From Actinobacteria bacterium HGW-Actinobacteria-7 (GTDB lineage: Bacteria > Actinomycetota > Coriobacteriia > Anaerosomatales > PHET01), in the NCBI GenBank assembly GCA_002841275.1, contig PHET01000004.1, positions 11,873 through 75,872 of the forward strand: 64,000 bases of DNA, written 5' to 3'. Position 1 is the first letter of the stretch. Every line of letters starts with the position of its first letter. This document shows positions 41,031 to 62,529 of this stretch, piece by piece. The position numbers and the translations under genes were made by a program. The notes beneath the pieces were generated by a model, which did no database searches, was not told the origin of the DNA, and was given only the letters and a program-made list of their open reading frames with translations.

Positions 41031-41279
41031 ATGCTCGAACTCAACATGAACACTCCAGCGCCCAAGCTCGCGACCGCCGAAGAGGCCGCCGAGGCTATGG
41101 GTGTCCCCGTCACCCAGGTGCGTAACCTGGTACGTCAGGGCAAGATGCCGCACTACCGTCTCGGCCACTATATCCGCATCGACATCGAAGAGGCGCTCAG
41201 CTGGCTGCGCCAGGAACCGCACACGTCAGTCGAAGTTGCGCCCAAGATCATCCACCACAACGCCCGCAGGAAGGGGTGA
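41031..41279 (+). CDS. xis: Excisionase / HTH_17 protein
   Basis: TAEEAAEAMGV..VRNLVRQGKMPHYRLGHYIRI; overlaps int. Confidence 0.85.
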   Translation: MLELNMNTPAPKLATAEEAAEAMGVPVTQVRNLVRQGKMPHYRLGHYIRIDIEEALSWLRQEPHTSVEVAPKIIHHNARRKG

Positions 41280-42424
41280 ACGATATGGCCAAGGTTCGTG
41301 TGAAGACTCTCAAGGACGGCACCAAACGCTACAGCTGCAAGCTCTCGATCGACGGCGAGTACGTGTACACCCACACATGGCCTACCGCGCGTGACGCGAA
41401 GAGGGAGGCGGATGAGATCCGCAAGCGGCACCTGCTCGGCGAGCCGCTCAAGCCGAAGTCGGTGCGCTTCGATGCGTTCGTTGAGACGTGGTACCTCACG
41501 CTGAAGGTCAAGGAGTCAACTCGGCAGGACTACCAGAACACGTGCCGTCATCTGATCGCCTACTTCGGCAAGATGCCGATCGGACAGATCGGTGCGCAGG
41601 ACATCGAGATGTTCATCGCTAAGATGTCGCGCGAGTACTCTGCGAACTCCGTGCATAAGGCAAAGACCCGTCTGCAGCAGATCCTGTTGCGGGCCGAGGC
41701 GTACGGGGTCATCCGCCGTTCGCCCATGCATCTCACGAAGCGCAACCTGACCACGCCAGAGCGCGAGAAGGACATCGTGTTCCTGGAAGCCGAACAGATC
41801 GGCGACTTCATCGACGCGGCGCCCGAGTTCTATCGCCCGCTCTTCACCGTCTGGTTCGCTACCGGGATGCGCATCGCCGAGATCGCGGCCGTGACCTGGG
41901 ACTGCGTCAGTTGGAACGGCAACTCGATCCGGGTGAAGCAGCAGCTCAAGTGCCAGAAGATCGAGCCGTATGCCAAGACGAACGCCGGCCTGAGGACGAT
42001 CGGCCTCGACGCCGGAGTCATGGACGTGCTCCGCGAGCACCGGAAGACGTGCCCGCTCAGCGAGTTCAACCTCGTGTTCCCCACTGTCACGGGTCGCCCG
42101 CTCCACATGAGCAACTTCGGCTCGCGCATCCTGCGTCCGATCACCAAGGAACTCGGTGTCCAGGGGTTCACGGCTCACTCCATCCGTCACACGTTCGCCA
42201 CGGTCTTGCTGTCTGACGGTATCAACCCGAAGAAGGTCGCGCAGATGATGGGCCACAGCGACAAGAGCGGCGACTTGCTGTGGAGGACGTACGCCCACGT
42301 TCTGAAGGCGGACCATGACCGTGCCTCGGCAGCGATCGGCAAGTACGTCGTGCGTGAAGGTGACGGGCCGACCGACGGCATCGTCATCGAGTTTCCAGCC
42401 CGCCGTTTGAGAAGCGTTTCGTAG
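41276..42424 (+). CDS. int: Tyrosine integrase of island 1
   Basis: Arm-binding N-terminus; TGMRIAE, KT, HSIRH, MGH, TY; next to attR. Confidence 0.95.
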   Translation: MNDMAKVRVKTLKDGTKRYSCKLSIDGEYVYTHTWPTARDAKREADEIRKRHLLGEPLKPKSVRFDAFVETWYLTLKVKESTRQDYQNTCRHLIAYFGKMPIGQIGAQDIEMFIAKMSREYSANSVHKAKTRLQQILLRAEAYGVIRRSPMHLTKRNLTTPEREKDIVFLEAEQIGDFIDAAPEFYRPLFTVWFATGMRIAEIAAVTWDCVSWNGNSIRVKQQLKCQKIEPYAKTNAGLRTIGLDAGVMDVLREHRKTCPLSEFNLVFPTVTGRPLHMSNFGSRILRPITKELGVQGFTAHSIRHTFATVLLSDGINPKKVAQMMGHSDKSGDLLWRTYAHVLKADHDRASAAIGKYVVREGDGPTDGIVIEFPARRLRSVS

Positions 42425-42572: not shown

Positions 42573-42610
42573 GCCCTCGTAGCTCAGGGGATAGAGCACA
42601 GGTTTCCTAA
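42573..42610 (+). tRNA. 5' half of tRNA-Arg(CCT), second copy (attR of island 1 / attL of element 2)
   Basis: Identical to 19918-19955 and again broken right after the anticodon loop. Confidence 0.85.
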
Positions 42611-43850: not shown

Positions 43851-44975
43851 CTATGCCGTTTGCGCGAACTCGCTGGTGGTATCGCTTGAAGCCGTAGTCA
43901 TACTCGCGGCAAGACGCTGCATTGCAGCAACGGTGTCTTCCTGCCGCACCTTCGTATACGTCCGAAGTATCTGTTGCGCACTAGAGCCAACCAACAGCGC
44001 AACTAAAGATGGCGAGGCTCCCTGACTAATCATCAGAGAGATGAAGGTTTTGCGAGCGAGATAATTGACCGCACTTCCTTCTGGCACCCGAAGACCAGAC
44101 CTCGTCAGCGAGGGGCGCAGAATATCTTTTGCGAACCGCTGCATATCACGACGCCGACCTCTGATAGTCGGGAAGACGAGGTCATCTACACCAGCGTTCA
44201 TCACTCGCTTTTGTTCTTGTAGTTCGTGCCGAAGGTCGGGCGTCATAGGAACCACCCTAGTAAGACCGTTCTTCGTGCCGTTACTGCCGTTCTTCGTGGC
44301 TGTTCGGCTGATAGTTATCGTTCCAGCGTTCCAGTCACAGTCGCCAAACCGCAACTCGCTACATTCAGAGGGACGCGCTCCCGTAGTGAACATCATTCGC
44401 ATCAGAGCGCGGTCACACCCTTTTGGGGTGCGGTTGATAAGTAGCGCCACCTGTTCGGCAGACAACACATAATCCACGCCAGTCGCGCCATCGCTAGTTC
44501 TAATGGTCTTCACTCTCGCTACTGGGTTCTGGCTGACGAGGTTGATTGCCACGGCATAGGACATCACAGCACCAAGGGTTACCAAGCATCGTTTTATAGT
44601 CAGGTCGCTTGAGCCAAGGTGCTTTTTGTAGGCAATCCAGCGCCCGATTGCTTCTGTCGTCACGCCACGACGAACCTTCGTATCCGAGAAGAACGGCAAC
44701 AGGTGGTTGTCCAACCGCGACTTGTAAGTAGTAATCGTCTGCTCACGAAGGTGATGCGTTCCGTTGACCAAATAGCGGTCAACCAACTCAGAGAACTTGA
44801 TGTCACGAGCCGTGGGTAGTTGGTTCTCTCGCCCTTTGGTGGCAAGACGGTCGTGAAGTTCTTGTGCTGCTCTCTTCTGGTGTCCACCGTTCACCCATAC
44901 TTGCTTGCCGTTCTGACGGACGACACACCAGAAGGTCTTGGTTCCATCCCTGTGTTCGCGCTCAACGATAGCCAT
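43851..44975 (-). CDS. int: Tyrosine integrase with non-canonical catalytic box II
   Basis: Start MAIVERE; TGARPSE, TKNG, NYLARKTF, VGSS, RTY. Confidence 0.88.
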   Translation of the reverse strand: MAIVEREHRDGTKTFWCVVRQNGKQVWVNGGHQKRAAQELHDRLATKGRENQLPTARDIKFSELVDRYLVNGTHHLREQTITTYKSRLDNHLLPFFSDTKVRRGVTTEAIGRWIAYKKHLGSSDLTIKRCLVTLGAVMSYAVAINLVSQNPVARVKTIRTSDGATGVDYVLSAEQVALLINRTPKGCDRALMRMMFTTGARPSECSELRFGDCDWNAGTITISRTATKNGSNGTKNGLTRVVPMTPDLRHELQEQKRVMNAGVDDLVFPTIRGRRRDMQRFAKDILRPSLTRSGLRVPEGSAVNYLARKTFISLMISQGASPSLVALLVGSSAQQILRTYTKVRQEDTVAAMQRLAASMTTASSDTTSEFAQTA

Positions 44976-45154
44976 TCCTGACCGTCCAATCCGTTGACCC
45001 GTGATTGACCGTAGGTCAACTACCTGCACTTTGTTCACATACAGAGACCATTGCGGTCTCACGCATTTGCCTACGACAGACGTCTTACCATTGCGTCATC
45101 GGAGATATCCAGTCTCTGTTGGGCGGCGTCAGAGACGACAGGTAGAATGACGGT

Positions 45155-48076: not shown

Positions 48077-49045
48077 TTATTGCTTCTTTGGTCGTCCACC
48101 ACTACGAGGCTTCTTGGCGAATGCCTCTACTTCCGCCTTACTCAGAACATACTGGTTGCCGACCTTGTAACCCTTAAGCCGCTCTTCTTTGATGAATTCA
48201 AGAACCCTGTGTGCGCCTACGGGTGTGCCTGACTTGGCACTGATAATCTCTGCCGCTTGTCTGGTAGAGATACCGTCTCGCACCTTCGGGTCTTTGAATG
48301 TGATGACATCACCATCAGTGGGTGAGGATGGCTGCTGGACGCCTTTGTCAACATCCTTGCCCCACGGCTCCCAGCCGACAAATCTATTGCGGGCAAACAA
48401 CTCTAACTTCGGCTCTGAGGTGTAAAGGCGCTCTATCCGCCGACGCACCTCTTCTGGTTTGGCGCTGTGTTCCTTGTCAAGTTCGGCGAATACAATCTGG
48501 CGCACTCTCTTGTCCTTGCGCACGGGTGCCTTACCAGAGACACCGAGCAGCACAATCTCGGCGTTAGGATTGGTGTAAGAACCTCTGCCGACATACAGCA
48601 GCGGGTTGTCGTCAGCGTCCTCGCCCTTGCTCTTGACCCAGACAAAGGCAACCGTCTTGTATTGATAGCCCCAATTCCCCATCAACCGCAGCGCATCAGG
48701 GAGCAGCGGTAAGGTTGCCCACATAAAGTGGACGGTTCCTTCGGGGTGGTTGCGTGAAGGAACTTCCAACTGGGACATCTGCGCAACAGACAGGGTTGGG
48801 TAATCGGGCGCGTTCACGTTGCCTTTGTCGTCATATGACCACGCAGGGTCAGAATAAATGACTGGGAAGTGCCCCTCGGGTAGCGGTGGGGTGTCTGGAG
48901 GCATCTGCGGTGTCGCAACGAGGCAAGACTTTGCTCGCTGATTGCGGCTTCTACGAGTGATTGCTCTTGGCTTGTTGACCTCATTCCAGACGGACGAGAC
49001 GTGAGCCTCAAGCCCATCTAGGAATTCAGAGTAATCCGCCGCCAT
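48077..49045 (-). CDS. MT-A70 family N6-adenine methyltransferase fused to a C-terminal HTH_17
   Basis: IYSDPAWSY, FMWAT, WGYQYKT.AFVWVK, HSAKP, LELFAR; tail ISTRQAAEII..LKGYKVGNQYVL..GRPKK. Confidence 0.88.
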   Translation of the reverse strand: MAADYSEFLDGLEAHVSSVWNEVNKPRAITRRSRNQRAKSCLVATPQMPPDTPPLPEGHFPVIYSDPAWSYDDKGNVNAPDYPTLSVAQMSQLEVPSRNHPEGTVHFMWATLPLLPDALRLMGNWGYQYKTVAFVWVKSKGEDADDNPLLYVGRGSYTNPNAEIVLLGVSGKAPVRKDKRVRQIVFAELDKEHSAKPEEVRRRIERLYTSEPKLELFARNRFVGWEPWGKDVDKGVQQPSSPTDGDVITFKDPKVRDGISTRQAAEIISAKSGTPVGAHRVLEFIKEERLKGYKVGNQYVLSKAEVEAFAKKPRSGGRPKKQ

Positions 49046-49120
49046 TCGTTCCCCCGTCTCGCACGACCCTATTTGTGCCTGAGACAAGGATATCGGACGA
49101 GGGTGATAAGAGACAGGGGA

Positions 49121-49910: not shown

Positions 49911-50891
49911 CTAAGGCGTTACCGCCATCATCGACGGCGTGTTGTCGATGACCATACTCGGCAGGGTTATGCCAGATGTCATTGACCACTTCACTCTGGT
50001 CGGAACTCTGCCCGCGACCCCTAATGCAGACCACGGAACTCGGCACTCAATAGCACTTCTGTCAGCGGCGTAGCCCGTTGTGGTTGATGCTGCCACGGAT
50101 GAACCGAGGCTACCGACGGTCTTGCTGCCGTCACCGTTGATTGGGTCATCCACACCGCCATAGCGATACAGCGTCGTAGACAGAACCGATGACATTCGTG
50201 TGTTTACTACGAGGACGAAGTCGGTCGCGGCTTCCATTCGCCCGTCTGCGTCTATATCCAAATACATCGTCCAGAAGGCGTTCGCTGAACCGCCAGCAAC
50301 CCTAGTGGCGTGTAGATATAGATATGAAGTGTCACCGTAGGCAGAGAGTAGATACAGGTCGTCAGAAGGTTGACCATTCGGGTCTGGGTCAGTCGGCTCA
50401 ATGGTGTCAGTGATATGTCCTGTTGGGCTACTCACAAGCGGTGCCCAGTCGGTCATAGTGCCGTCAATCACGATATTGGCGGCTGGCAGCGATACGACAA
50501 CGGGCAACGAGGTATGCCCTGCGGCGTCACGGACTTCGTATGTGCCGTTGGTCTTTGGCACGATGAATACTGGCGCGTTATCCTCGGCGACCTGAACATC
50601 GTCTTTGATGAGGCTGTATGGCGGGACACCCGAGCCACTGACAGCGATAGTTATACTGCCATTGCCGTTGTCGGTAATCGTGGACTCGGCACTCTCAAAG
50701 GTGCTGGCTACCTCTTGTGTGCCGACAGCAACAGCGCTCAGTGCCTCGGCGACTTGGATGTGCTTGAGCATCATTGCGTTGCTCAATACGCTCACACCGA
50801 GAGTGACCGCGAGAGCGGCGCAAATCATCAACAGGATGTATTCGACGTTGGTCGCGCCTCTTCGTTGTCGTGCGATTGGATAAACCATCAT
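49911..50891 (-). CDS. Flp/Tad-type prepilin N-terminus fused to Ig-like and carbohydrate-binding-like domains
   Basis: RQRRG/ATNVEYILL class III signal with EY; IVIDG..DW..YLYL..YLDID..IECRVPWSALG (DOMON/CBM9-like). Confidence 0.75.
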   Translation of the reverse strand: MMVYPIARQRRGATNVEYILLMICAALAVTLGVSVLSNAMMLKHIQVAEALSAVAVGTQEVASTFESAESTITDNGNGSITIAVSGSGVPPYSLIKDDVQVAEDNAPVFIVPKTNGTYEVRDAAGHTSLPVVVSLPAANIVIDGTMTDWAPLVSSPTGHITDTIEPTDPDPNGQPSDDLYLLSAYGDTSYLYLHATRVAGGSANAFWTMYLDIDADGRMEAATDFVLVVNTRMSSVLSTTLYRYGGVDDPINGDGSKTVGSLGSSVAASTTTGYAADRSAIECRVPWSALGVAGRVPTRVKWSMTSGITLPSMVIDNTPSMMAVTP

Positions 50892-51245: not shown

Positions 51246-52157
51246 CTACTCGTAGACGTAATCTAGGTAGATGCTCTCAACATCAAATAGACCGCTAGCA
51301 ACGCACTCTGCTTCCAATCGCACAGCCAAAGCGTCTCTAACGGATGGGTTAGACAAATCAAATCCAGCGTCAGAAGGGATGGTCATTCTGTAGGTGTGAT
51401 ACAGCGCGTCACTAGGAACATCCAAGAACCACCACGCGATAACATCCGTAGATGTCTCGGCGCTGACAGTCAGGGTTCGTGAAGGCAATGGTGCGACGGC
51501 AGCACGAACGACCACGACAATATCTAGTCTGCGGAATGCGCCTGGGTAGCCTGCTGGAATGACGTCTGGGTCACTCGCAAAATCTAATGTTAGGTTGCCG
51601 CCGAGTTCACGGGCGCGAACCTTGACGTTATCTGTTGTCCACAGCAACGGTGCCCAGTCATTGACATTCCAGTTGTCTGTAAGCGTCGGGGCAAACCACA
51701 GGCTCGTGCCGAGTTCATCAGGTATTAGTTGTGATGCTGGGCTACCCGTAACCCGTAGTTCAGAGTGATATTCAACGACGGTCACCGTAATCTCGTTCAA
51801 TACAGAGTCGGTAATCGTGTAGGTATTCACTCCCTGTTCTGGCGTCACGATTAGGTAGTAATCCTCAATCGCATCAGCGAGAGTATTAGTTCCATCCGTG
51901 ACCGTGAATGGTGCTATACCACCAGACCACGAGATTGTGTAAGTGCCATCACCGTTGTCTACGGGCGCATCACTAACAAGAGTTCCGCCAACATTGTCTG
52001 TGGCTGCTGTTGTAATAAGTGCCTCTGCGACTTGGATATGCTTGGCGTTCATCGTATTGCCGAGGTAGCCAAGACCTAGAGTCACAGCCAGCGCTCCAGC
52101 CACAATCAAGATGATGTATTCAACATTGACGGCTGCCCTGCGTTCTACATAAAACAT
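51246..52157 (-). CDS. Second Flp-type prepilin fusion protein with a different C-terminal domain
   Basis: ERRA/AVNVEYIIL..ALAVTLG..KHIQVAEAL; DNGDGTYTISWSGG. Confidence 0.75.
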   Translation of the reverse strand: MFYVERRAAVNVEYIILIVAGALAVTLGLGYLGNTMNAKHIQVAEALITTAATDNVGGTLVSDAPVDNGDGTYTISWSGGIAPFTVTDGTNTLADAIEDYYLIVTPEQGVNTYTITDSVLNEITVTVVEYHSELRVTGSPASQLIPDELGTSLWFAPTLTDNWNVNDWAPLLWTTDNVKVRARELGGNLTLDFASDPDVIPAGYPGAFRRLDIVVVVRAAVAPLPSRTLTVSAETSTDVIAWWFLDVPSDALYHTYRMTIPSDAGFDLSNPSVRDALAVRLEAECVASGLFDVESIYLDYVYE

Positions 52158-52182
52158 CACGAACATCCCCCTTGCTCGGCAG

Positions 52183-52689
52183 TTACTCACTGCGTTTGTC
52201 CTGTATCTCAATCACGACTGTCGCGTGTTGTTCATCAGAGGTAACGACCGTCACCTCTAGGTCGGCATCAATGAATGACGGGAACTTGAAGCCAATCATC
52301 TGAGAGACTGCCATTCCGATACGACGGGTTGCGAGGTCAACTACCTGCTTCACAACACGCTCGTCATAGATGGTCTGGGCGGCACCCGACGAATACCAGA
52401 CACGGCACAAGCGGTCGGCTTTGAGGTGGTATTCAAAGCGGTAGTGTCCGTCAGAGACAGTCGGTGGCTCACCATCAATACCTATGGTCTGACCGTTGTA
52501 GGGTTTGCCATTGGCATCAACGAGAATATGGGCACCCGCACCGAATGCATCGTGAAGGTCTTCCTTCAGACGACGACCGATATTCAGGTGGTTGCTGACA
52601 TAGTCGCCACTGATTGAAGTAGCATAGAGATAGACCTTACTCTTTACAGTCTTATCTTTTATAACTGGTTTGATAATCGCAGTTGCCAT
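52183..52689 (-). CDS. Hypothetical protein heading the pilin operon
   Basis: AAGGGG RBS, start MATAII at 52689; AT-rich promoter region upstream. Confidence 0.6.
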   Translation of the reverse strand: MATAIIKPVIKDKTVKSKVYLYATSISGDYVSNHLNIGRRLKEDLHDAFGAGAHILVDANGKPYNGQTIGIDGEPPTVSDGHYRFEYHLKADRLCRVWYSSGAAQTIYDERVVKQVVDLATRRIGMAVSQMIGFKFPSFIDADLEVTVVTSDEQHATVVIEIQDKRSE

Positions 52690-52877
52690 CGGTGTTACCC
52701 CCTTAAGAGTAACCCTACTACGATAATATACTATAGCAAGTATATGCAAGTGTTTATCGCTATACGGTATGATTATTCGGTGAGTGGTAGGAGTACGTTA
52801 AGTGATTAGATAGCACACTACTTTGATTGTTCAATTGAATACCGCTATTTGCCGTGCGATAATGAGAACAGCAACAA

Positions 52878-53035
52878 AGAAGGGCTGTAGCGGTAACTAC
52901 AACCCTTCTCGTAGTCCCAGCGAGGGGACTTATTCCGACGGCTCGGTCTTTTCAGCGGCACCACCCCTCGCGGGGCTACTCACTTCGTCGGGTAGTGAGC
53001 CTTTATCGTCTGGTCGTGCCGACCATCGACGTCTT
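52878..53035 (-). ncRNA. Putative TnpB omegaRNA (reRNA) plus terminator
   Basis: Overlaps the tnpB 3' end; CTCACT/AGTGAG hairpin whose loop (52986-52991) is complementary to 52935-52940 (pseudoknot); hairpin 52913-52930; terminator-like hairpin 52878-52909 with U-rich tail on minus. Boundaries approximate. Confidence 0.6.
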
Positions 53036-54199
53036 ACCTCTGACAGCGATGTTCTTGGCGCTGTTCAAATCCCTATCCATCACCAACCCACACTTCGGGC
53101 ATTCATAGACCCTGTCTTGCTTCGCCATCTCTTTGATATGACCGCACGAGGAACAAGTCATCGTGGTGTAAGCAGGGTTTACTGTCTTGACCGTCGCCCC
53201 GTTGTCAGCCGCTCTTCCTCTGTCGGTCAACGCCCTTCTCAGGTTGTTCACGGCTACCTTCTTCCAGCCGTGGTAATCCTTGAAGCCGTCCCGCAAGTCC
53301 ATATCCTCAAAGAAGATGTGTTTGGCACCCAGCGACACGACGAAGCGAACAATCACAAGGTGGTGTTCCTTGATGATATTGGCTCTGCGTCCCTTCGCTC
53401 TCTCAAGCAATCGCAGTAGTTCACGATGCCTACGGCTTCCGTAAGTGATGTTGCCTTCGTCCAGCAGCCGCCTGTAATAGCGTATGTCTCTGTCGGCTGC
53501 TGATGTATCAGGAAGGTCAAAGACCATTCCTTCGCCAGTGCCATCGTCAGCAAGGTAGTAGACCGCACAAGTGTTACTAGTGTTGATGTCTATCCCGATG
53601 ACCCCAGAACCCTTCTTGGTTATCTGTGCCTTCGATATCTCATACGACACGGACACATCCCAGCGACCCTCTTCAATCCTCTGGATGACAACCGCCTTGG
53701 CTGTGAATTCACCAGATAATCCACCGAAGTCAAAGTCCTTGATGCGGGAACGCAGGACTCCAACAATCGGGACTTCTATGAACCCGACACCGAGAACACA
53801 GTCACTCGCTTTGAACTGGATGCTCGGATGCTCAACCTTCGGCTTGCGTTTGGGCGTTCTCGCTTTGGTGCTGTGGCTCTTGGAATATCTGTTATAGGCA
53901 TCGCGGCATCTCTCAACACCGACGCTCACCTCTTCACGACAAACAAGAAGACCCTCGTCTGATTTGATTAACTCAGCGAGGGTCTCATTCTTGGCGCGGG
54001 CAGCAAGAGTAGGAACCTCGGCTAATCGTGCCTCTAGGTCTCTATTGCTCTGGAACCTCTGCTCGGCATCCCACAACTTCACGCGATTATCGTGGGCGAA
54101 GTTATAGCCAAGGCGAACAAGATAGGACAACGCGAGCAGTTGTCTATCCTGCGTGCGGTTCACTCGCACTCTCACTGATTGTTGATGTCGTCTTGCCAT
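53003..54199 (-). CDS. tnpB: RNA-guided endonuclease TnpB family
   Basis: RuvC I GIDIN, RuvC II FFEDM, VNPAYTT.TCSSCG..CPKCG Zn finger, RuvC III DRDLNSAKNI; all three acidic residues present. Confidence 0.93.
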   Translation of the reverse strand: MARRHQQSVRVRVNRTQDRQLLALSYLVRLGYNFAHDNRVKLWDAEQRFQSNRDLEARLAEVPTLAARAKNETLAELIKSDEGLLVCREEVSVGVERCRDAYNRYSKSHSTKARTPKRKPKVEHPSIQFKASDCVLGVGFIEVPIVGVLRSRIKDFDFGGLSGEFTAKAVVIQRIEEGRWDVSVSYEISKAQITKKGSGVIGIDINTSNTCAVYYLADDGTGEGMVFDLPDTSAADRDIRYYRRLLDEGNITYGSRRHRELLRLLERAKGRRANIIKEHHLVIVRFVVSLGAKHIFFEDMDLRDGFKDYHGWKKVAVNNLRRALTDRGRAADNGATVKTVNPAYTTMTCSSCGHIKEMAKQDRVYECPKCGLVMDRDLNSAKNIAVRGKTSMVGTTRR

Positions 54200-54252
54200 T
54201 TGTGACCGCCCCTTCCCCCGAAGTCCTCGGTCACGAGGAATGTTGGAAGAGG

Positions 54253-54852
54253 TTACTTCTGCTGCTTCTTCTCGGTGTCCACGACCGCGACAATCACGAA
54301 CTTTGGTTCACCATCCGAGCCGATGTTCAGCATCTTCGTTTGACCTGTATGGACGCCGTAATTCCTGTCGTCCGCTGTTGGAACACACGGGACACCCAGA
54401 CGAACGCCGACACCAGAGCGGAAGGTCTTCACCGTCATCTGGATGTTCAGAGGCTCGCTCACCTTGTTTATCTTCGGTGTCGCCAAATCCTCGTCCAAAT
54501 CCACGCCGTCACCGAGTGAATACTGAACATCGATGTCTGCTGCGATATCAGACATCACGCGGTTTATCGCCAAATAGATGTAGCGACGCGGGATAGCAGC
54601 CGCCTGCTGCTTCTTGCCTTTGTGCTTCCCGCTCTCGGGGACATAGTCAACTTGCTCATTGAAGCGCTCATTCTCTTTATCTAGAACGGCAGAGGTTACT
54701 GCCTTCTCATCTGGTAGACCCGTTTGCGCCATCTTACGAACCAAATCCGCTATGTCATTACACAGGTTCCTATAATCACTTTGTAATCCAGTGAGCGCGA
54801 ATAAGTCCTCATACTTCTGAGGTTCCAACTTGTAATGAACGATACTAGTCAT
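54253..54852 (-). CDS. TnpB/Cas12f N-terminal-lobe-like protein (WED-REC) without RuvC
   Basis: MTSIVHYKLEP..L..LQSDYRNLCN; IPRRYIYLAINRV; terminal beta strands KFVIVAVVDTE; resemblance judged by eye. Confidence 0.5.
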   Translation of the reverse strand: MTSIVHYKLEPQKYEDLFALTGLQSDYRNLCNDIADLVRKMAQTGLPDEKAVTSAVLDKENERFNEQVDYVPESGKHKGKKQQAAAIPRRYIYLAINRVMSDIAADIDVQYSLGDGVDLDEDLATPKINKVSEPLNIQMTVKTFRSGVGVRLGVPCVPTADDRNYGVHTGQTKMLNIGSDGEPKFVIVAVVDTEKKQQK

Positions 54853-54921
54853 TGTCGTTATCCTATCCTCTTGTGCCTACGCTTAAAGGTATCGGCAACT
54901 GTTGAGATAACTTGACAGGTA

Positions 54922-55120
54922 TTTTGCCGCAGTAGAGGAAGCCCGCTAAAGACCTTAAGGTCTTAAGACCCTTAATATTTAGAACGTTATGAGAGAACCA
55001 AAGGTTCTCTCTCATAAAGATGTCTTGATATATAGAGACTGCGGCAAAACGCTTTAAGCGTCTTTGCCGCAACAGAATGTTCCTATGCTTCGCGCCCGTT
55101 TGTTGCTTCGCAACGGGCGC
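54922..55120. other. Dense cluster of inverted repeats (structured leader/ncRNA or origin)
   Basis: IRs at 54922-33/55038-49, 54949-64 (perfect palindrome), 54987-55017, 55041-70, 55092-55120. Confidence 0.6.
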
Positions 55121-55620
55121 TTGTGATGAGCAGATGTGGATAGATAATGTCACCGCTGAATTCCTACAAGAATGTCATCCACCGATACGAACTATCTAGC
55201 AGGGCGTGGGTTACGACTTCCTATGGACGGACATCACACCTACGAACTATTTGTTGTGGATAGATAGAACGTCAGAATGACCTTCCCTGATATACACGGG
55301 CGCGGGAATGCCAACTCTTCTCTCACTACAAAGGTCTTAAGGGATTGAACGGGTGAACCGCCAGAGCATCCCAGTGGAACTCTGTTCTACGTTCTTAGTC
55401 TGCGGCGGCGGAATTCTGTTGCGGCTGGGTCGGTGGCGGCTCGTATTGGCAAATCGCTTACGAACCTTGTTCGGACGAGCATTTGTCCACCGAACCGCTT
55501 ACCTCAAGGATTTACTAATAGGAACGCTTGAACACGGGGACATTTGCTGCTGCCTAACAACCGCGTCGTCACCGTAGCCCGATTATCACCAGATATCTGA
55601 TGGGTTCTGGATGGTTCGGT

Positions 55621-55660: not shown

Positions 55661-56332
55661 AACCGTCTGGTAGTTATCCGTCCTCTTGCTAGTAGAACGG
55701 GCGGAAGGCAAACACCGTGTAGTTGATGAATGGGCTTCACTCGTCTTGATGACCCGATGTCTCTTGCCGTTACTAGAACGCGCTACCTCAGAAGTTCCTT
55801 ATCTATCGTGTCGTTCTAGTGGTTCGTGGGCGGATATACCGACCGCACCACCTAACTCAAGGAATTCCCAATACAGAACAAGCCACAGAGCCTATTAGAT
55901 GTGGGCTGCTGTCGGGTTGTGTGGAATGACTGGGTACTCTCGCTGACCCTAAAGTCTTGAACGAGGGTGACCACTATCATCCATCGTTCGTCTGACTACT
56001 TCTCCGCTGACTTCAGAGTGCCGAATTCCGCGACCTCACCAAATCCGCTGTCTCGTTCTGACCTAACAGATGCGTCCTCGTCTCGCTGGATGACCTAAAC
56101 GGGGCGGACGTGACACCACGCGATGCGACAACCAGGTCTACCTCATCGGCGTTATCTCTACATCGCTGTGTTGATAGATAACACACGTATCTATGTTGTC
56201 TACTAGACATTATCCCAACGCTGTATTACACCCTCATGCTGTACTTTACCGTTTAGCAGATTATACTACCGTTCAGCATATCACTATACAGTTATATACA
56301 GAATATGCCGATTAAGAAGGTACAAGGCAAGA

Positions 56333-59158: not shown

Positions 59159-59926
59159 TCAACAACGAGAGCCGCAGACACCAATAAGTGCGCATATTGA
59201 ACATTCAGGGTCGCTAGCGTGGCAGTAGTCCAGCCCAATGATGAACAAGCCATCCCATTCAACAGGGGCATAGGGCGATAGTTCTCTCGCCTTGTCTATT
59301 ACTTCTTGTGGTGAGGCATCCTCGCTTACCAGCCCGAGGCGTGTCATTACTCTTGAACAATGCCTGTCGGGGCTAATGTCCAAGCCAGCGTAGTTGTCCC
59401 ACAGAGTTACTCCATGTGAGAGAACAGCCACACGGCAATACAAGCCCGAAGTCTTAGCCCCATAGCCGCCAAAGGACATCACCCTTTGTAGGAACTGTTG
59501 TCCCGTGGGTTCGTCGGCGTGTAGGAACCTAGCAGAGCCGCCCCACTCGTCTCGTATACGACACATCGCCTGATGGCAGTGTTCAACGGTGTATCTGTAT
59601 CGCAACAGGCTTCCGTTACGACCACCAGCCGCCGCGTAATCACCGTCATCATCAAAGGCAAGCCACTCTAGTAACACATCGTTGTTGATAGTAAAGAGCG
59701 TCAGTGTGTCGTGAATACCTGACCGCATCTTCATCTCGTTGACGAACCCGAGTTCAGTGGCGGAACCCATAGCACGCTCCCACTGAATACCTCTGTTGAC
59801 CAAACAGGATATGAATAGTGAGTTCCAGCCTTCGTCATCAAGAGGCTGTCTGTCCTGCGGTGACCTCGCCATATCACCCCAGAAGTTGTTGGCGGCAATC
59901 TTCCTGATGTAATCAATCCTGTTCAT
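59159..59926 (-). CDS. HhH-GPD / endonuclease III-like DNA glycosylase with [4Fe-4S] motif
   Basis: GYGAKTS (HhH Lys), PDRHCSRV..RLGL (Asp), C-x6-C-x2-C-x5-C. Confidence 0.82.
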   Translation of the reverse strand: MNRIDYIRKIAANNFWGDMARSPQDRQPLDDEGWNSLFISCLVNRGIQWERAMGSATELGFVNEMKMRSGIHDTLTLFTINNDVLLEWLAFDDDGDYAAAGGRNGSLLRYRYTVEHCHQAMCRIRDEWGGSARFLHADEPTGQQFLQRVMSFGGYGAKTSGLYCRVAVLSHGVTLWDNYAGLDISPDRHCSRVMTRLGLVSEDASPQEVIDKARELSPYAPVEWDGLFIIGLDYCHASDPECSICALIGVCGSRC

Positions 59927-60618
59927 CACACGAGACCTTCCACAAGCGCGGGACAAACCTGTTGGGCACAGCACGAAGTGCAACACTCTGGACATCTGTG
60001 GACGCCGTGCCACTCACTCATACACGCGATATCCAAGGGGTAGCGTTCTAATGCTCGCCGCGCCTCTTCCCTCAAAGCGTCATAGCCCGAGGACATAAAG
60101 AACTCGGGCTGGAATGGCTCAACGACAGAGAGCCGAGTAAGCAAGAGAGCGGCACCTGATGTTGGTGTCACGCGAGAATTCGGGTGTCCAAGTATCTTTA
60201 GTAGATAGTTGCCTACGGTCGGCTCGTGGGGTGCCAGTCGTTCCACATACTCACGGACATATCCGCTGTCAGCATCTCTCGCTTCCCGCAAGTCACCATC
60301 AGCAAGGGTCTTTAGGAACCCAAGGATTATCTTGCGGCACTCACTGACTTGCCGTTCTGGAACAGCCCGCAAAGTAGTCCAGATGGCGGTCTCAAGTTCG
60401 CTTCGTCCTACACCTCGGACTTCAGTCAGACTGCGGACGCCTAGATACTCCACCATCCCGCAAATGGCGTAATAGACACCGACTGCACTACCGAAGGCGA
60501 TAAAGTCACCAGAGAGAACAACCGCGAGACATAGCCTCGTCAATTCTTCTTTGTCGTCATAGTTGATTACGGGCAGTTGGATGTTGGAGGGTGGGATTAT
60601 TGCTTGGTAGGCAAGCAA
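59926..60618 (-). CDS. Divergent HhH-GPD-like protein with Cys-rich tail, catalytic motifs lost
   Basis: TVGNYLL.ILG, LLTRL.V, C-terminal CPECCTSCCAQQVCP; TGATG coupling to the downstream glycosylase. Confidence 0.5.
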   Translation of the reverse strand: MLAYQAIIPPSNIQLPVINYDDKEELTRLCLAVVLSGDFIAFGSAVGVYYAICGMVEYLGVRSLTEVRGVGRSELETAIWTTLRAVPERQVSECRKIILGFLKTLADGDLREARDADSGYVREYVERLAPHEPTVGNYLLKILGHPNSRVTPTSGAALLLTRLSVVEPFQPEFFMSSGYDALREEARRALERYPLDIACMSEWHGVHRCPECCTSCCAQQVCPALVEGLV

Positions 60619-61191: not shown

Positions 61192-62529
61192 ATGGCACTA
61201 TATAACTATCCTGTCGGCGATATTCCTGATGAACTGTTCCAACTCATCAACCTCGGAATTCGCAACGCACGAGACCATTCTGTCGGCACACCTGACAAGA
61301 TAAAGATGACCCTCAAGCAAGCCGAGAAGATGCTTCCTGACGACTTCTCACGGTTCACCGCTTGCCTTCTCGGACGCTACAAACTACTCACCAAAGCAGA
61401 CTTGTTGGTCATCTATCTCACTATCTCTAACGGGTGCGCTGATGGACTGATTGCGTCACTACAACAGCAGTTCGGTATCCCCTTTGATGTCCAGAAGGCT
61501 GTCGGTGGGCTGACCAAGAAGACCTCTGCGAAGAACAAACTAGGGTTTGCGATAGACGACGGCGCGTTCCGCACGATGACCCCAAGCGCCGTGAATGTCC
61601 GTATCCAGACCCAGTTATATGACGAGGGTTTGTCACCCTTCGTTGCGCTCACTCGTCACGGTGTCAAAGCGATGACTTTGCTCGCCAAAGCCAATGGTAA
61701 GAAGTTGTCGGCGAAGGACATCCAGATACCGACGCAGAAGTCCGCTGTCCAAATCCCTAAGTGGTTGCACGAGCGTCAGGTCGGTGACCTCATCGCTATG
61801 ACAATCGCTGGCGCATCATTCACGCACGGCGGGGGCTACAAAGGGCTGAAGACATCTTGCGTTGTGGATGAACTGCTGACCGAGGTTCCCCTGAAGTTCA
61901 AGCACGCTGGAAGCGACCACTACTACAAACCTGACTTGGGGTTGACGCTCACCTATATGGTTGCCAGCGATAAGGGCGTCAAGAAGGACACTATCGTGGC
62001 GTGGGTTGAACACGACACCACGAGCAACGACAAAGATGCGATACAAGGCAAGATAAAGAACCACCTGCTGTATGTCCAAGACCAAGAGGGCAAGCCGCCG
62101 TATCTACTGCTGACATCCAGCAGCGATGAACGGATGCACCAGACAATCGAACCTGCCGTTAGAGACGCTCTCAAGGCTGTTGTCGGTATGTCCTTTGTGG
62201 ACTACACGGAGCAGGTCGGTCGTATCGCGTTCGCCTCTCACAACGATATATCCCTCGTCGGAATGCTCGGTAAGGGCGAAGTGGGGTTATGGCGTAAGTG
62301 GGACTTCAAGAACGAGTGCTTTGAAGACAAGAAGCACACTCTCGTCAGTCTCGACCGCGCTGAGAAGAAGAGTGCCACAACCAACAGCCAGACGGCGGAT
62401 AACCATCAATCGGTTGAGGATATTCGTGAACGTAAGGGTTCTTCGTGCGGTCTTGTCGGATACCGCGATAGCGACATAGAGATAACGCCCGTGAGTGCGC
62501 CGATTGGCTGGCGTGAGGAAGTGGCGTAG
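61192..62529 (+). CDS. Replication-relaxation (Replic_Relax/MOBL-like) family protein
   Basis: LT..G, WLHE..V, YKPD, WVEHDTTS..IQGKI..H, LLLTSS..R pattern. Confidence 0.62.
   Translation: MALYNYPVGDIPDELFQLINLGIRNARDHSVGTPDKIKMTLKQAEKMLPDDFSRFTACLLGRYKLLTKADLLVIYLTISNGCADGLIASLQQQFGIPFDVQKAVGGLTKKTSAKNKLGFAIDDGAFRTMTPSAVNVRIQTQLYDEGLSPFVALTRHGVKAMTLLAKANGKKLSAKDIQIPTQKSAVQIPKWLHERQVGDLIAMTIAGASFTHGGGYKGLKTSCVVDELLTEVPLKFKHAGSDHYYKPDLGLTLTYMVASDKGVKKDTIVAWVEHDTTSNDKDAIQGKIKNHLLYVQDQEGKPPYLLLTSSSDERMHQTIEPAVRDALKAVVGMSFVDYTEQVGRIAFASHNDISLVGMLGKGEVGLWRKWDFKNECFEDKKHTLVSLDRAEKKSATTNSQTADNHQSVEDIRERKGSSCGLVGYRDSDIEITPVSAPIGWREEVA

Follow-up and report, generated by a model that had tools for sequence, protein, structure and literature searches.

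The window analysed here is a stretch of 64,000 nt from Actinobacteria bacterium HGW-Actinobacteria-7 (contig PHET01000004.1, positions 11,873 to 75,872), and the subject of this work is a pair of adjacent genes on its minus strand: tnpB (53003-54199, 398 aa) and, directly upstream of it, a gene for a 199-aa protein (54253-54852), here called the partner. The two are separated by an intergenic gap of 53 nt (54200-54252, minus strand), in which a purine-rich stretch resembles a ribosome-binding site. A second contig, assembled separately, covers 52221-55458 with no letter difference and no gap (the run behind it is possibly the source sample). From their spacing, the two genes are probably co-transcribed, and a Met start conserved in close TnpB homologs points to a separate translation start for tnpB. 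A sequence-only reading of the region had put the 199-aa open reading frame (ORF) at these positions, 53 nt before tnpB, and had described it as lacking HUH or serine-recombinase motifs and as lying where a TnpA transposase would be. The positions are as claimed, and no transposase family in Pfam or NCBIfam matched the upstream ORF; the comparison with TnpA is misleading, as the genes lie inside an integrated element and not in an insertion sequence (IS). Both sit in a low-GC island (about 52% vs about 62%), and this island is a 26.9-kb element that has inserted into tRNA-Arg(CCT) at the anticodon loop and is bounded by 7-nt cores.

The long gene belongs to the TnpB family by sequence and by fold. 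Its product scores 115.9 bits against the NCBIfam model guided_TnpB (NF040570; cut-off 100) and matches PF07282, the zinc-ribbon TNB domain; the RuvC triad D204, E298 and D377 and the four zinc cysteines are invariant in all eight aligned element-type TnpBs. In the AlphaFold2 model (pLDDT 83.3), RuvC is preceded by a full WED/REC lobe of the protein's own, and the best structural matches are the TnpBs of ISDra2 and ISFba1. The claims that this tnpB is complete and that the pair is not a split gene are thus borne out, and its predicted catalytic residues are all in place. In the genome of the window (G000), tblastn and blastn found no second copy of tnpB, and no tnpA is present in this genome; a profile of element-type TnpBs has one match each in G000 and in a further genome, G079.

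The partner itself has no match in Pfam, NCBIfam, PHROGs or PADLOC. Compared with the neighbouring TnpB at the sequence level, BLASTP gave a best E value of 1.4 and hhalign probabilities of 0.3% and 7%; the hhalign comparison with the TnpB N-terminus (E 0.005, probability 7%, 40 columns) is marginal at best, and PF12323 appears on one partner homolog at a weak E of 0.1. The partner is therefore not a recent duplicate of its neighbour, and its assignment to the WED/REC fold rests on structure. Its AlphaFold2 model, built from nine sequences, has a pLDDT of 88.5 and a pTM of 0.85. With this model as query, all ten Foldseek matches at E<=0.001 were chains of AsCas12f (TM by query 0.51-0.62), followed by other Cas12f, Cas12k and TnpB. 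Likewise, a VIA-align search of 48,161 chains returned TnpB, Cas12 or Fanzor in all of its top 33 rows (best Z 12.0), with the first unrelated fold at Z 4.2; partner residues 1-195 align on AsCas12f 1-211 (Z 11.8, rmsd 3.2, 156 aligned) and residues 1-199 on ISDra2 TnpB 3-181 (Z 11.0), so that the two are tied. An independent ESM Atlas model of the homolog P0009 gives the same WED/REC answer; the Atlas model of the window's own 199-aa protein is poor (pLDDT 0.43) and yielded no usable match. A search of PDB sequences with a partner-profile hidden Markov model found chance helical matches only, and the best matches in BFVD were exclusively of full-length TnpB/Fanzor size. The models thus predict that the partner is a WED-REC-WED recognition lobe over its whole length, neither a ribbon-helix-helix nor an AbrB fold, and that it ends before RuvC; the sequence-only reading had proposed just such a lobe, stopping where RuvC-I would begin.

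The partner belongs to a small family of proteins of similar length. Using phmmer on 1.84 billion representatives without a length limit, we found eight proteins at E<=0.001, one of which is the partner itself; the others have 181-216 aa, apart from a 78-aa piece whose cluster contains a member of 192 aa, and no full-length TnpB was returned. Two further proteins came from a profile search restricted to lengths of 42-378 aa (6 matches among 6917 candidates). The 12 members chosen for a family alignment are 171-216 aa long, are 20-95% identical, share 10 invariant columns and end on the same terminal strand; all 12 stop after the last WED strand, and R90, Y91, K142, F144 and R151 are invariant or nearly so. 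In this family, the basic charge seen in TnpB lobes has been lost: the net charge per 100 aa is -1.3 +/- 1.1 (n=12, one member positive), compared with +7.0 for the N-lobes of element TnpBs (n=8) and +8.0 for 33 other TnpB lobes, the lowest of which has +6.1 (these three groups make up the comparison, Cas12f lobes not included). Such a near-neutral charge would fit docking on a basic protein better than nucleic-acid binding by the partner on its own.

The pair is kept in a related element, at locus L002 of Actinobacteria bacterium UBA2184 (genome G061), which belongs to another family of the same order; here, too, the partner homolog stands directly before tnpB. The L002 element measures 32.0 kb and has the same tRNA site, the same 7-nt core and the same gene order, with shared genes 33-70% identical. 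Relative to the window, the L002 partner is 30-35% and the L002 TnpB 24-27% identical, and the latter keeps the RuvC triad. Within the order, the partner occurs in 2 of 146 genomes, and tnpB adjoins it in both; the same two genomes carry a 445-aa element gene, and the element-type TnpB profile is matched (E<=1e-10) in only three of the 146. No third genome with the partner was found among 401 sampled genomes of the class, nor in any of 60 relatives. A collection of genome contigs gave 15 pattern matches, which led to one further locus; metagenome contigs, viral contigs, phages and plasmids gave none, although the longer family pattern was not scanned there and distant loci may remain. A third pair is suggested by the proteins P0005 (partner, 32% identical to that of the window) and P0016 (TnpB, 60% identical), the only hint being that the longest contig is 3702 for each. 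The pair is a core module of this element family, as judged from two loci. A TnpB tree groups both element TnpB types; with a single outgroup clade and long branches, we did not use it as support.

Non-coding elements flank the two genes on both sides. Over and behind the tnpB stop lies a structured region (52877-53050, minus strand), a candidate omega-RNA by its folding score and a terminator scan, which ends in a terminator-like hairpin of 15 pairs (52877-52910). The region 52860-53050 has a fold z of -3.56, and none of 200 shuffles was as stable; at L002, the region 3' of tnpB reaches a fold z of only -0.87 and cannot be aligned with that of the window. What is conserved between the two loci behind tnpB is only a back-to-back promoter-like site found by promoter scan (52807-52863; local score 53, maximum of 100 shuffles 31.5), one arm of which would run antisense into the candidate omega-RNA. 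The gap of 1.2-1.5 kb that precedes the partner aligns best, locally, over a non-coding element of about 150 nt with three hairpins (54992-55144, minus strand), which ends about 140 nt before the partner start and corresponds to L002 9673-9831 (local score 57.5, maximum of 100 shuffles 44). The hairpins are found at matching places in both loci, 140-155 nt upstream of the partner, and their stem sequences differ. Under RNA parameters, the more stable strand of this element is not the same in the two loci, so that a function as RNA cannot be told from one as DNA; we consider it a candidate guide scaffold, leader RNA or DNA origin/operator. Rfam had nothing close to gathering score for these non-coding regions.

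The upstream gap also holds three copies of a 12-nt motif (55135-55146, 55255-55266 and 56169-56180), which we take to resemble a DnaA box with one change, as well as palindromes at 54949-54964. Together these hint at an origin; L002 is without the motif at the aligned place.

Guide searches against the reconstructed empty site and circle junction gave no match longer than 9 nt for the window or 11 nt for L002, and in a genome-wide guide search the best matches were at chance level. At L002, 14 nt located behind the hairpin of tnpB recur in a conserved promoter-like site inside the element. We considered this self-match as a guide and rejected it: the window has no counterpart at the same position, and both L002 copies resemble extended -10 boxes, which is better explained by a shared promoter motif.

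How does the locus compare with known systems? In Cas12f (type V-F; AsCas12f 8DZJ/7WJU/8J12, RhCas12f 9NZP) the WED/REC lobe is matched by the partner model, but Cas12f is a homodimer made from one gene and accompanied by a CRISPR array, whereas the locus in the window has two unlike genes, the second of them without RuvC, and no array; a scan for exact repeats (at least three 16-mers at 50-90 nt spacing) in G000 and 60 kb of G061 found none, although degenerate arrays could escape it. The TnpBs of IS200/IS605 and IS607 elements (ISDra2 8H1J/8EXA, ISFba1 8IAZ) share NF040570 and the best structural matches with the long gene, over whose 3' end a structured region lies in the window. The present locus differs in that it has no tnpA, occurs once per genome, is fixed within an element integrated at a tRNA and includes an upstream gene dedicated to a lobe; it is thus not an element of these types. 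TldR proteins, which reportedly retain a full-length, inactivated RuvC lobe, do not fit either: in the window, the triad is intact in the long gene, and RuvC is absent from the short one. The likeness to TldR is that of domesticated TnpB derivatives on mobile elements (10.1101/2023.11.30.569447). In short, the locus is neither an IS, nor a type V-F CRISPR system, nor a TldR, and the short gene, though its predicted fold is like that of a TnpB/Cas12f recognition lobe, is no TnpB.

A further parallel is with exapted TnpB modules, whose TnpB is immobile and keeps a partner gene at its side (Altae-Tran et al. 2023, PMC10691335). The modules described there are RHH/MazE-TnpB, RpoE-TnpB, SpoIIE-TnpB, PrimPol-TnpB, GATase-TnpB and tyrosine-recombinase-linked TnpB; no partner named there, supplements aside, is a TnpB-derived lobe, and the tyrosine-recombinase-linked TnpBs are all described as inactivated, whereas those of the window and L002 keep their triad. 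Domestication of the tnpB module, which the sequence-only reading had also proposed, is well supported. None of the three outcomes that this reading had named as refuting it (an unrelated fold, absence of the pair from related elements, pseudogene-like decay) was observed; the roles that it suggested for the partner, namely a heterodimer, a subunit for target-adjacent motif (TAM) specificity or an inhibitor of TnpB, are possibilities taken up below. In the literature we found no TnpB with a RuvC-less lobe as partner, although supplementary tables of TnpB neighbourhoods could contain one: the word "heterodimer" is absent from the accessible text of a 2026 review on TnpB (PMC13639567), and no such pair appears in the accessible parts of the Arc preprint (10.64898/2026.09.24.754181), the 2025 CRISPR classification (PMC12669027), a structure-led nuclease search (10.64898/2026.03.27.714800) or the ESM Atlas preprint (10.64898/2026.06.03.729735). 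The pairing is real and conserved, and apparently undescribed.

Stand-alone N-lobes are also found in the ESM Atlas, as clusters around Aq_aa04 (PF27142), MJ0013 (PF27234) and SSO2105_N (PF27229) and as an unnamed phage cluster of 244 members. Compared with the partner homolog P0009, these clusters (174-226 aa) score 0.95-0.96 by features and reach a structural TM of 0.66-0.67, values that serve as leads only, with no alignment behind them. The 244-member cluster is all-viral, has proteins of about 180 aa, scores 0.96 with P0009 and is automatically named "putative Appendage"; its members may in fact be TnpB lobes that stand alone and have been wrongly labelled as structural proteins.

The reading that we favour, at somewhat less than an even chance, is that the partner serves the TnpB-RNA complex as an accessory subunit and stands in for the second Cas12f protomer. 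In Cas12f, two copies are described as joined via REC, with one RuvC cutting and the WED/REC groove of the second copy binding an RNA stem (10.1101/2025.08.14.670346), and the second protomer is described as reading the duplex distal to the protospacer-adjacent motif (PMC10097598). The residues resolved for that protomer in several structures (200 in 7wju_B, 197 in 8dzj_B, 194 in 9nzp_B) correspond to the extent of the partner; from this agreement and from the published roles of the second copy, we infer that the partner fills its place. The two genes would then be expressed together, and the partner would dock on TnpB via REC helices in the way of the second Cas12f protomer, while its WED/REC groove would take up either a stem of the RNA or the distal end of the duplex of guide and DNA; cutting would be left to the single RuvC of TnpB. 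The outcome would be an asymmetric dimer like that of Cas12f, but made from two genes and freed of the idle second RuvC. As the element's own empty site is unmatched, competing mobile DNA would be the likelier target. Two close TnpB homologs, P0017 and P0018 (54-55% identical), lack about 40 REC residues and keep the RuvC triad, a shortening that might be tolerated if another chain supplies REC. The more specific proposal of a natural two-gene heterodimeric RNA-guided nuclease, with a RuvC-less protomer in the role of the second Cas12f subunit and possibly guided by RNA from the upstream three-hairpin element, appears to us a tentative one, with a chance of about one in three.

Several observations weigh against an accessory subunit. 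The characterised TnpBs are described as monomers (PMC10097598, PMC13639567), and the TnpB studied here has a complete WED/REC lobe of its own. With its basic charge lost, the partner is less likely to bind RNA strongly, and the ESM Atlas has further large clusters of TnpB-like lobes (174-214 aa) that stand alone. The pair has been seen as DNA at two loci only, and the empty-site, circle-junction and genome-wide comparisons produced neither guide nor target. The divergence rates of the two genes also disagree: P0005 and P0016 are 32% and 60% identical to the window proteins, the L002 pair 30-35% and 24-27%. In addition, the L002 TnpB is not clearly nearer to the clade of the window TnpB (N-lobe score 14.3, vs a maximum of 15.0 among 33 others) and sits on a long branch of 2.8. 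Uneven divergence of this kind is not what tight co-evolution predicts. A complex prediction with ESMFold2 (TnpB and partner alignments, no RNA) scored 0.00 in two runs; the controls did not fold either, so this is evidence neither way.

Alternatively, the partner might be an independent DNA binder, which would reuse the TAM-reading groove of the WED/REC lobe with no need of RNA, perhaps on the upstream three-hairpin element, and which merely shares an operon with tnpB; we regard this as unlikely, yet as an alternative of real weight, and it is one that the sequence-only reading did not name. The conserved hairpin element 140-155 nt upstream in both loci would offer it a site, the basic and aromatic character of the five residues that are invariant or nearly so (R90, Y91, K142, F144, R151) would suit it, and both the other stand-alone lobes of the ESM Atlas and the discordant rates of the two genes are in line with it. 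A precedent would be Arc, an upstream accessory repressor described for IS605 elements (10.64898/2026.09.24.754181). However, a net neutral charge in 11 of 12 family members is unusual for a solo DNA binder, and the adjacency to tnpB at both loci, in an order with few TnpB matches (3/146), is left unexplained.

A role as built-in inhibitor or timer seems to us unlikely too, with nearly the same weight. Here, the partner would bind TnpB, its RNA or its TAM sites and keep the nuclease off while the element is integrated, either like an antitoxin or by making a repressor of the cutter. The order of a small gene followed by an intact nuclease is that of the RHH/MazE-TnpB modules, which have been proposed as toxin-antitoxin pairs (PMC10691335), and a neutral-to-acidic copy of a basic lobe would make a suitable decoy. 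The 14-nt match of L002 to a promoter-like site within its own element would, if it were a guide, need muting; yet nothing of the kind occurs at this position in the window, and the shared promoter motif accounts for the one in L002. Furthermore, a whole conserved lobe exceeds what inhibition requires.

It is very improbable that a programmed -1 frameshift yields a single-chain pseudo-dimer, in which one fused product of both ORFs would have two recognition lobes but a single RuvC: the tnpB frame is indeed -1 to that of the partner and is open over the last partner codons at both loci (36 codons before the ATG in the window), but the frames would agree by chance in one case out of three, conserved partner codons are enough to explain the open overlap, no classical slippery heptamer was seen by eye, and the shared start Met of close TnpB homologs is preceded by the ribosome-binding-like site. 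Equally far-fetched is a decaying, functionless front half of an older tnpB, for although truncated TnpB fragments are common in databases (in clusters named "Transposase (Fragment)"), all 12 aligned partner members are open, with no sign of decay and with the shared end and invariant columns described above, the model is confident, no RuvC remnant lies elsewhere in the genome and the codon-position GC resembles that of the neighbouring genes.

If the partner does act as an accessory subunit, the pair would bear on a question raised by Cas12f, which cuts with one RuvC yet needs two protein copies and for which the contribution of the second copy has been argued from structures. A natural pair whose second chain has shed RuvC would test that contribution directly. 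It would also mean that the recognition lobe of a very small editor can become, in evolution, a subunit of its own that may be swapped, with consequences for TAM range, specificity or on/off control, and that, beside homodimerisation and REC2 insertion, there is a third route from a monomeric TnpB to the reading of longer targets, here in an integrative element without CRISPR. Were the partner an inhibitor instead, it would be a native off-switch for TnpB, of which we found none described in the literature. Either way, the locus provides a setting in which RuvC-less TnpB lobes can be assayed.

On its left, the element that carries the pair is bounded by a 7-nt attachment core (42604-42610, plus strand) within the split tRNA-Arg(CCT), at the anticodon loop; the same site and core are used in G061. 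The right core lies outside the window (G000:C1:81397). A tyrosine integrase (PF00589) is encoded near the left end (43851-45062, minus strand), and a second one of 500 aa at the right end (G000:C1:79539-81041). The host tRNA-Arg(CCT) is split at its anticodon loop (window 42574-42610), and in both genomes a complete replacement tRNA-Arg(CCT) is found near the right end of the element (G000:C1:81089-81460; L004 14900-15330); the sequences of the two clearly differ. Just outside the left attachment site lies a further tyrosine integrase (window 41276-42424; L005 6977-8056; 35% identical), and its presence at the left site of both genomes suggests a second element stacked at the same locus.

Behind the tnpB module are two genes (49911-50891 and 51246-52211), with one such gene in L002 (13035-13991); their products have a short basic and then hydrophobic N-terminus, followed by domains of about 300 aa. 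They match no family, and the N-termini presumably resemble an Flp/type IV pilin signal. We therefore considered an arrangement like that of TldR and flagellin, with pilin-like genes of the element replacing host pilins, but rejected it: no host gene matched the pilin pattern, and the pattern caught only one of the two element genes.

The most conserved gene of the element is the 445-aa gene mentioned above (window 61192-62529, L002 959-2206), which is 70% identical between the two loci, matches no family and has a promoter region nearly identical in both elements. Its C-terminal motifs resemble, as we take it, those of replication-relaxation proteins; plasmid searches with this gene and with the upstream region gave no match. 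Also conserved are two adjacent genes (59159-60013 and 59926-60618; 51% and 33% identical to L002) with C-terminal cysteine clusters and no family match, presumably similar to helix-hairpin-helix glycosylases of the endonuclease III type. The cargo differs between the two elements. That of the window includes an MT-A70 methyltransferase with a helix-turn-helix tail (48077-49087) and a gene pair read by eye as type III restriction-modification-like (G000:C1:74756-78945), while the cargo in G061 includes Vsr (L002 235-639) and, again by eye, a cytosine-methyltransferase-like gene (L004 18018-19220).

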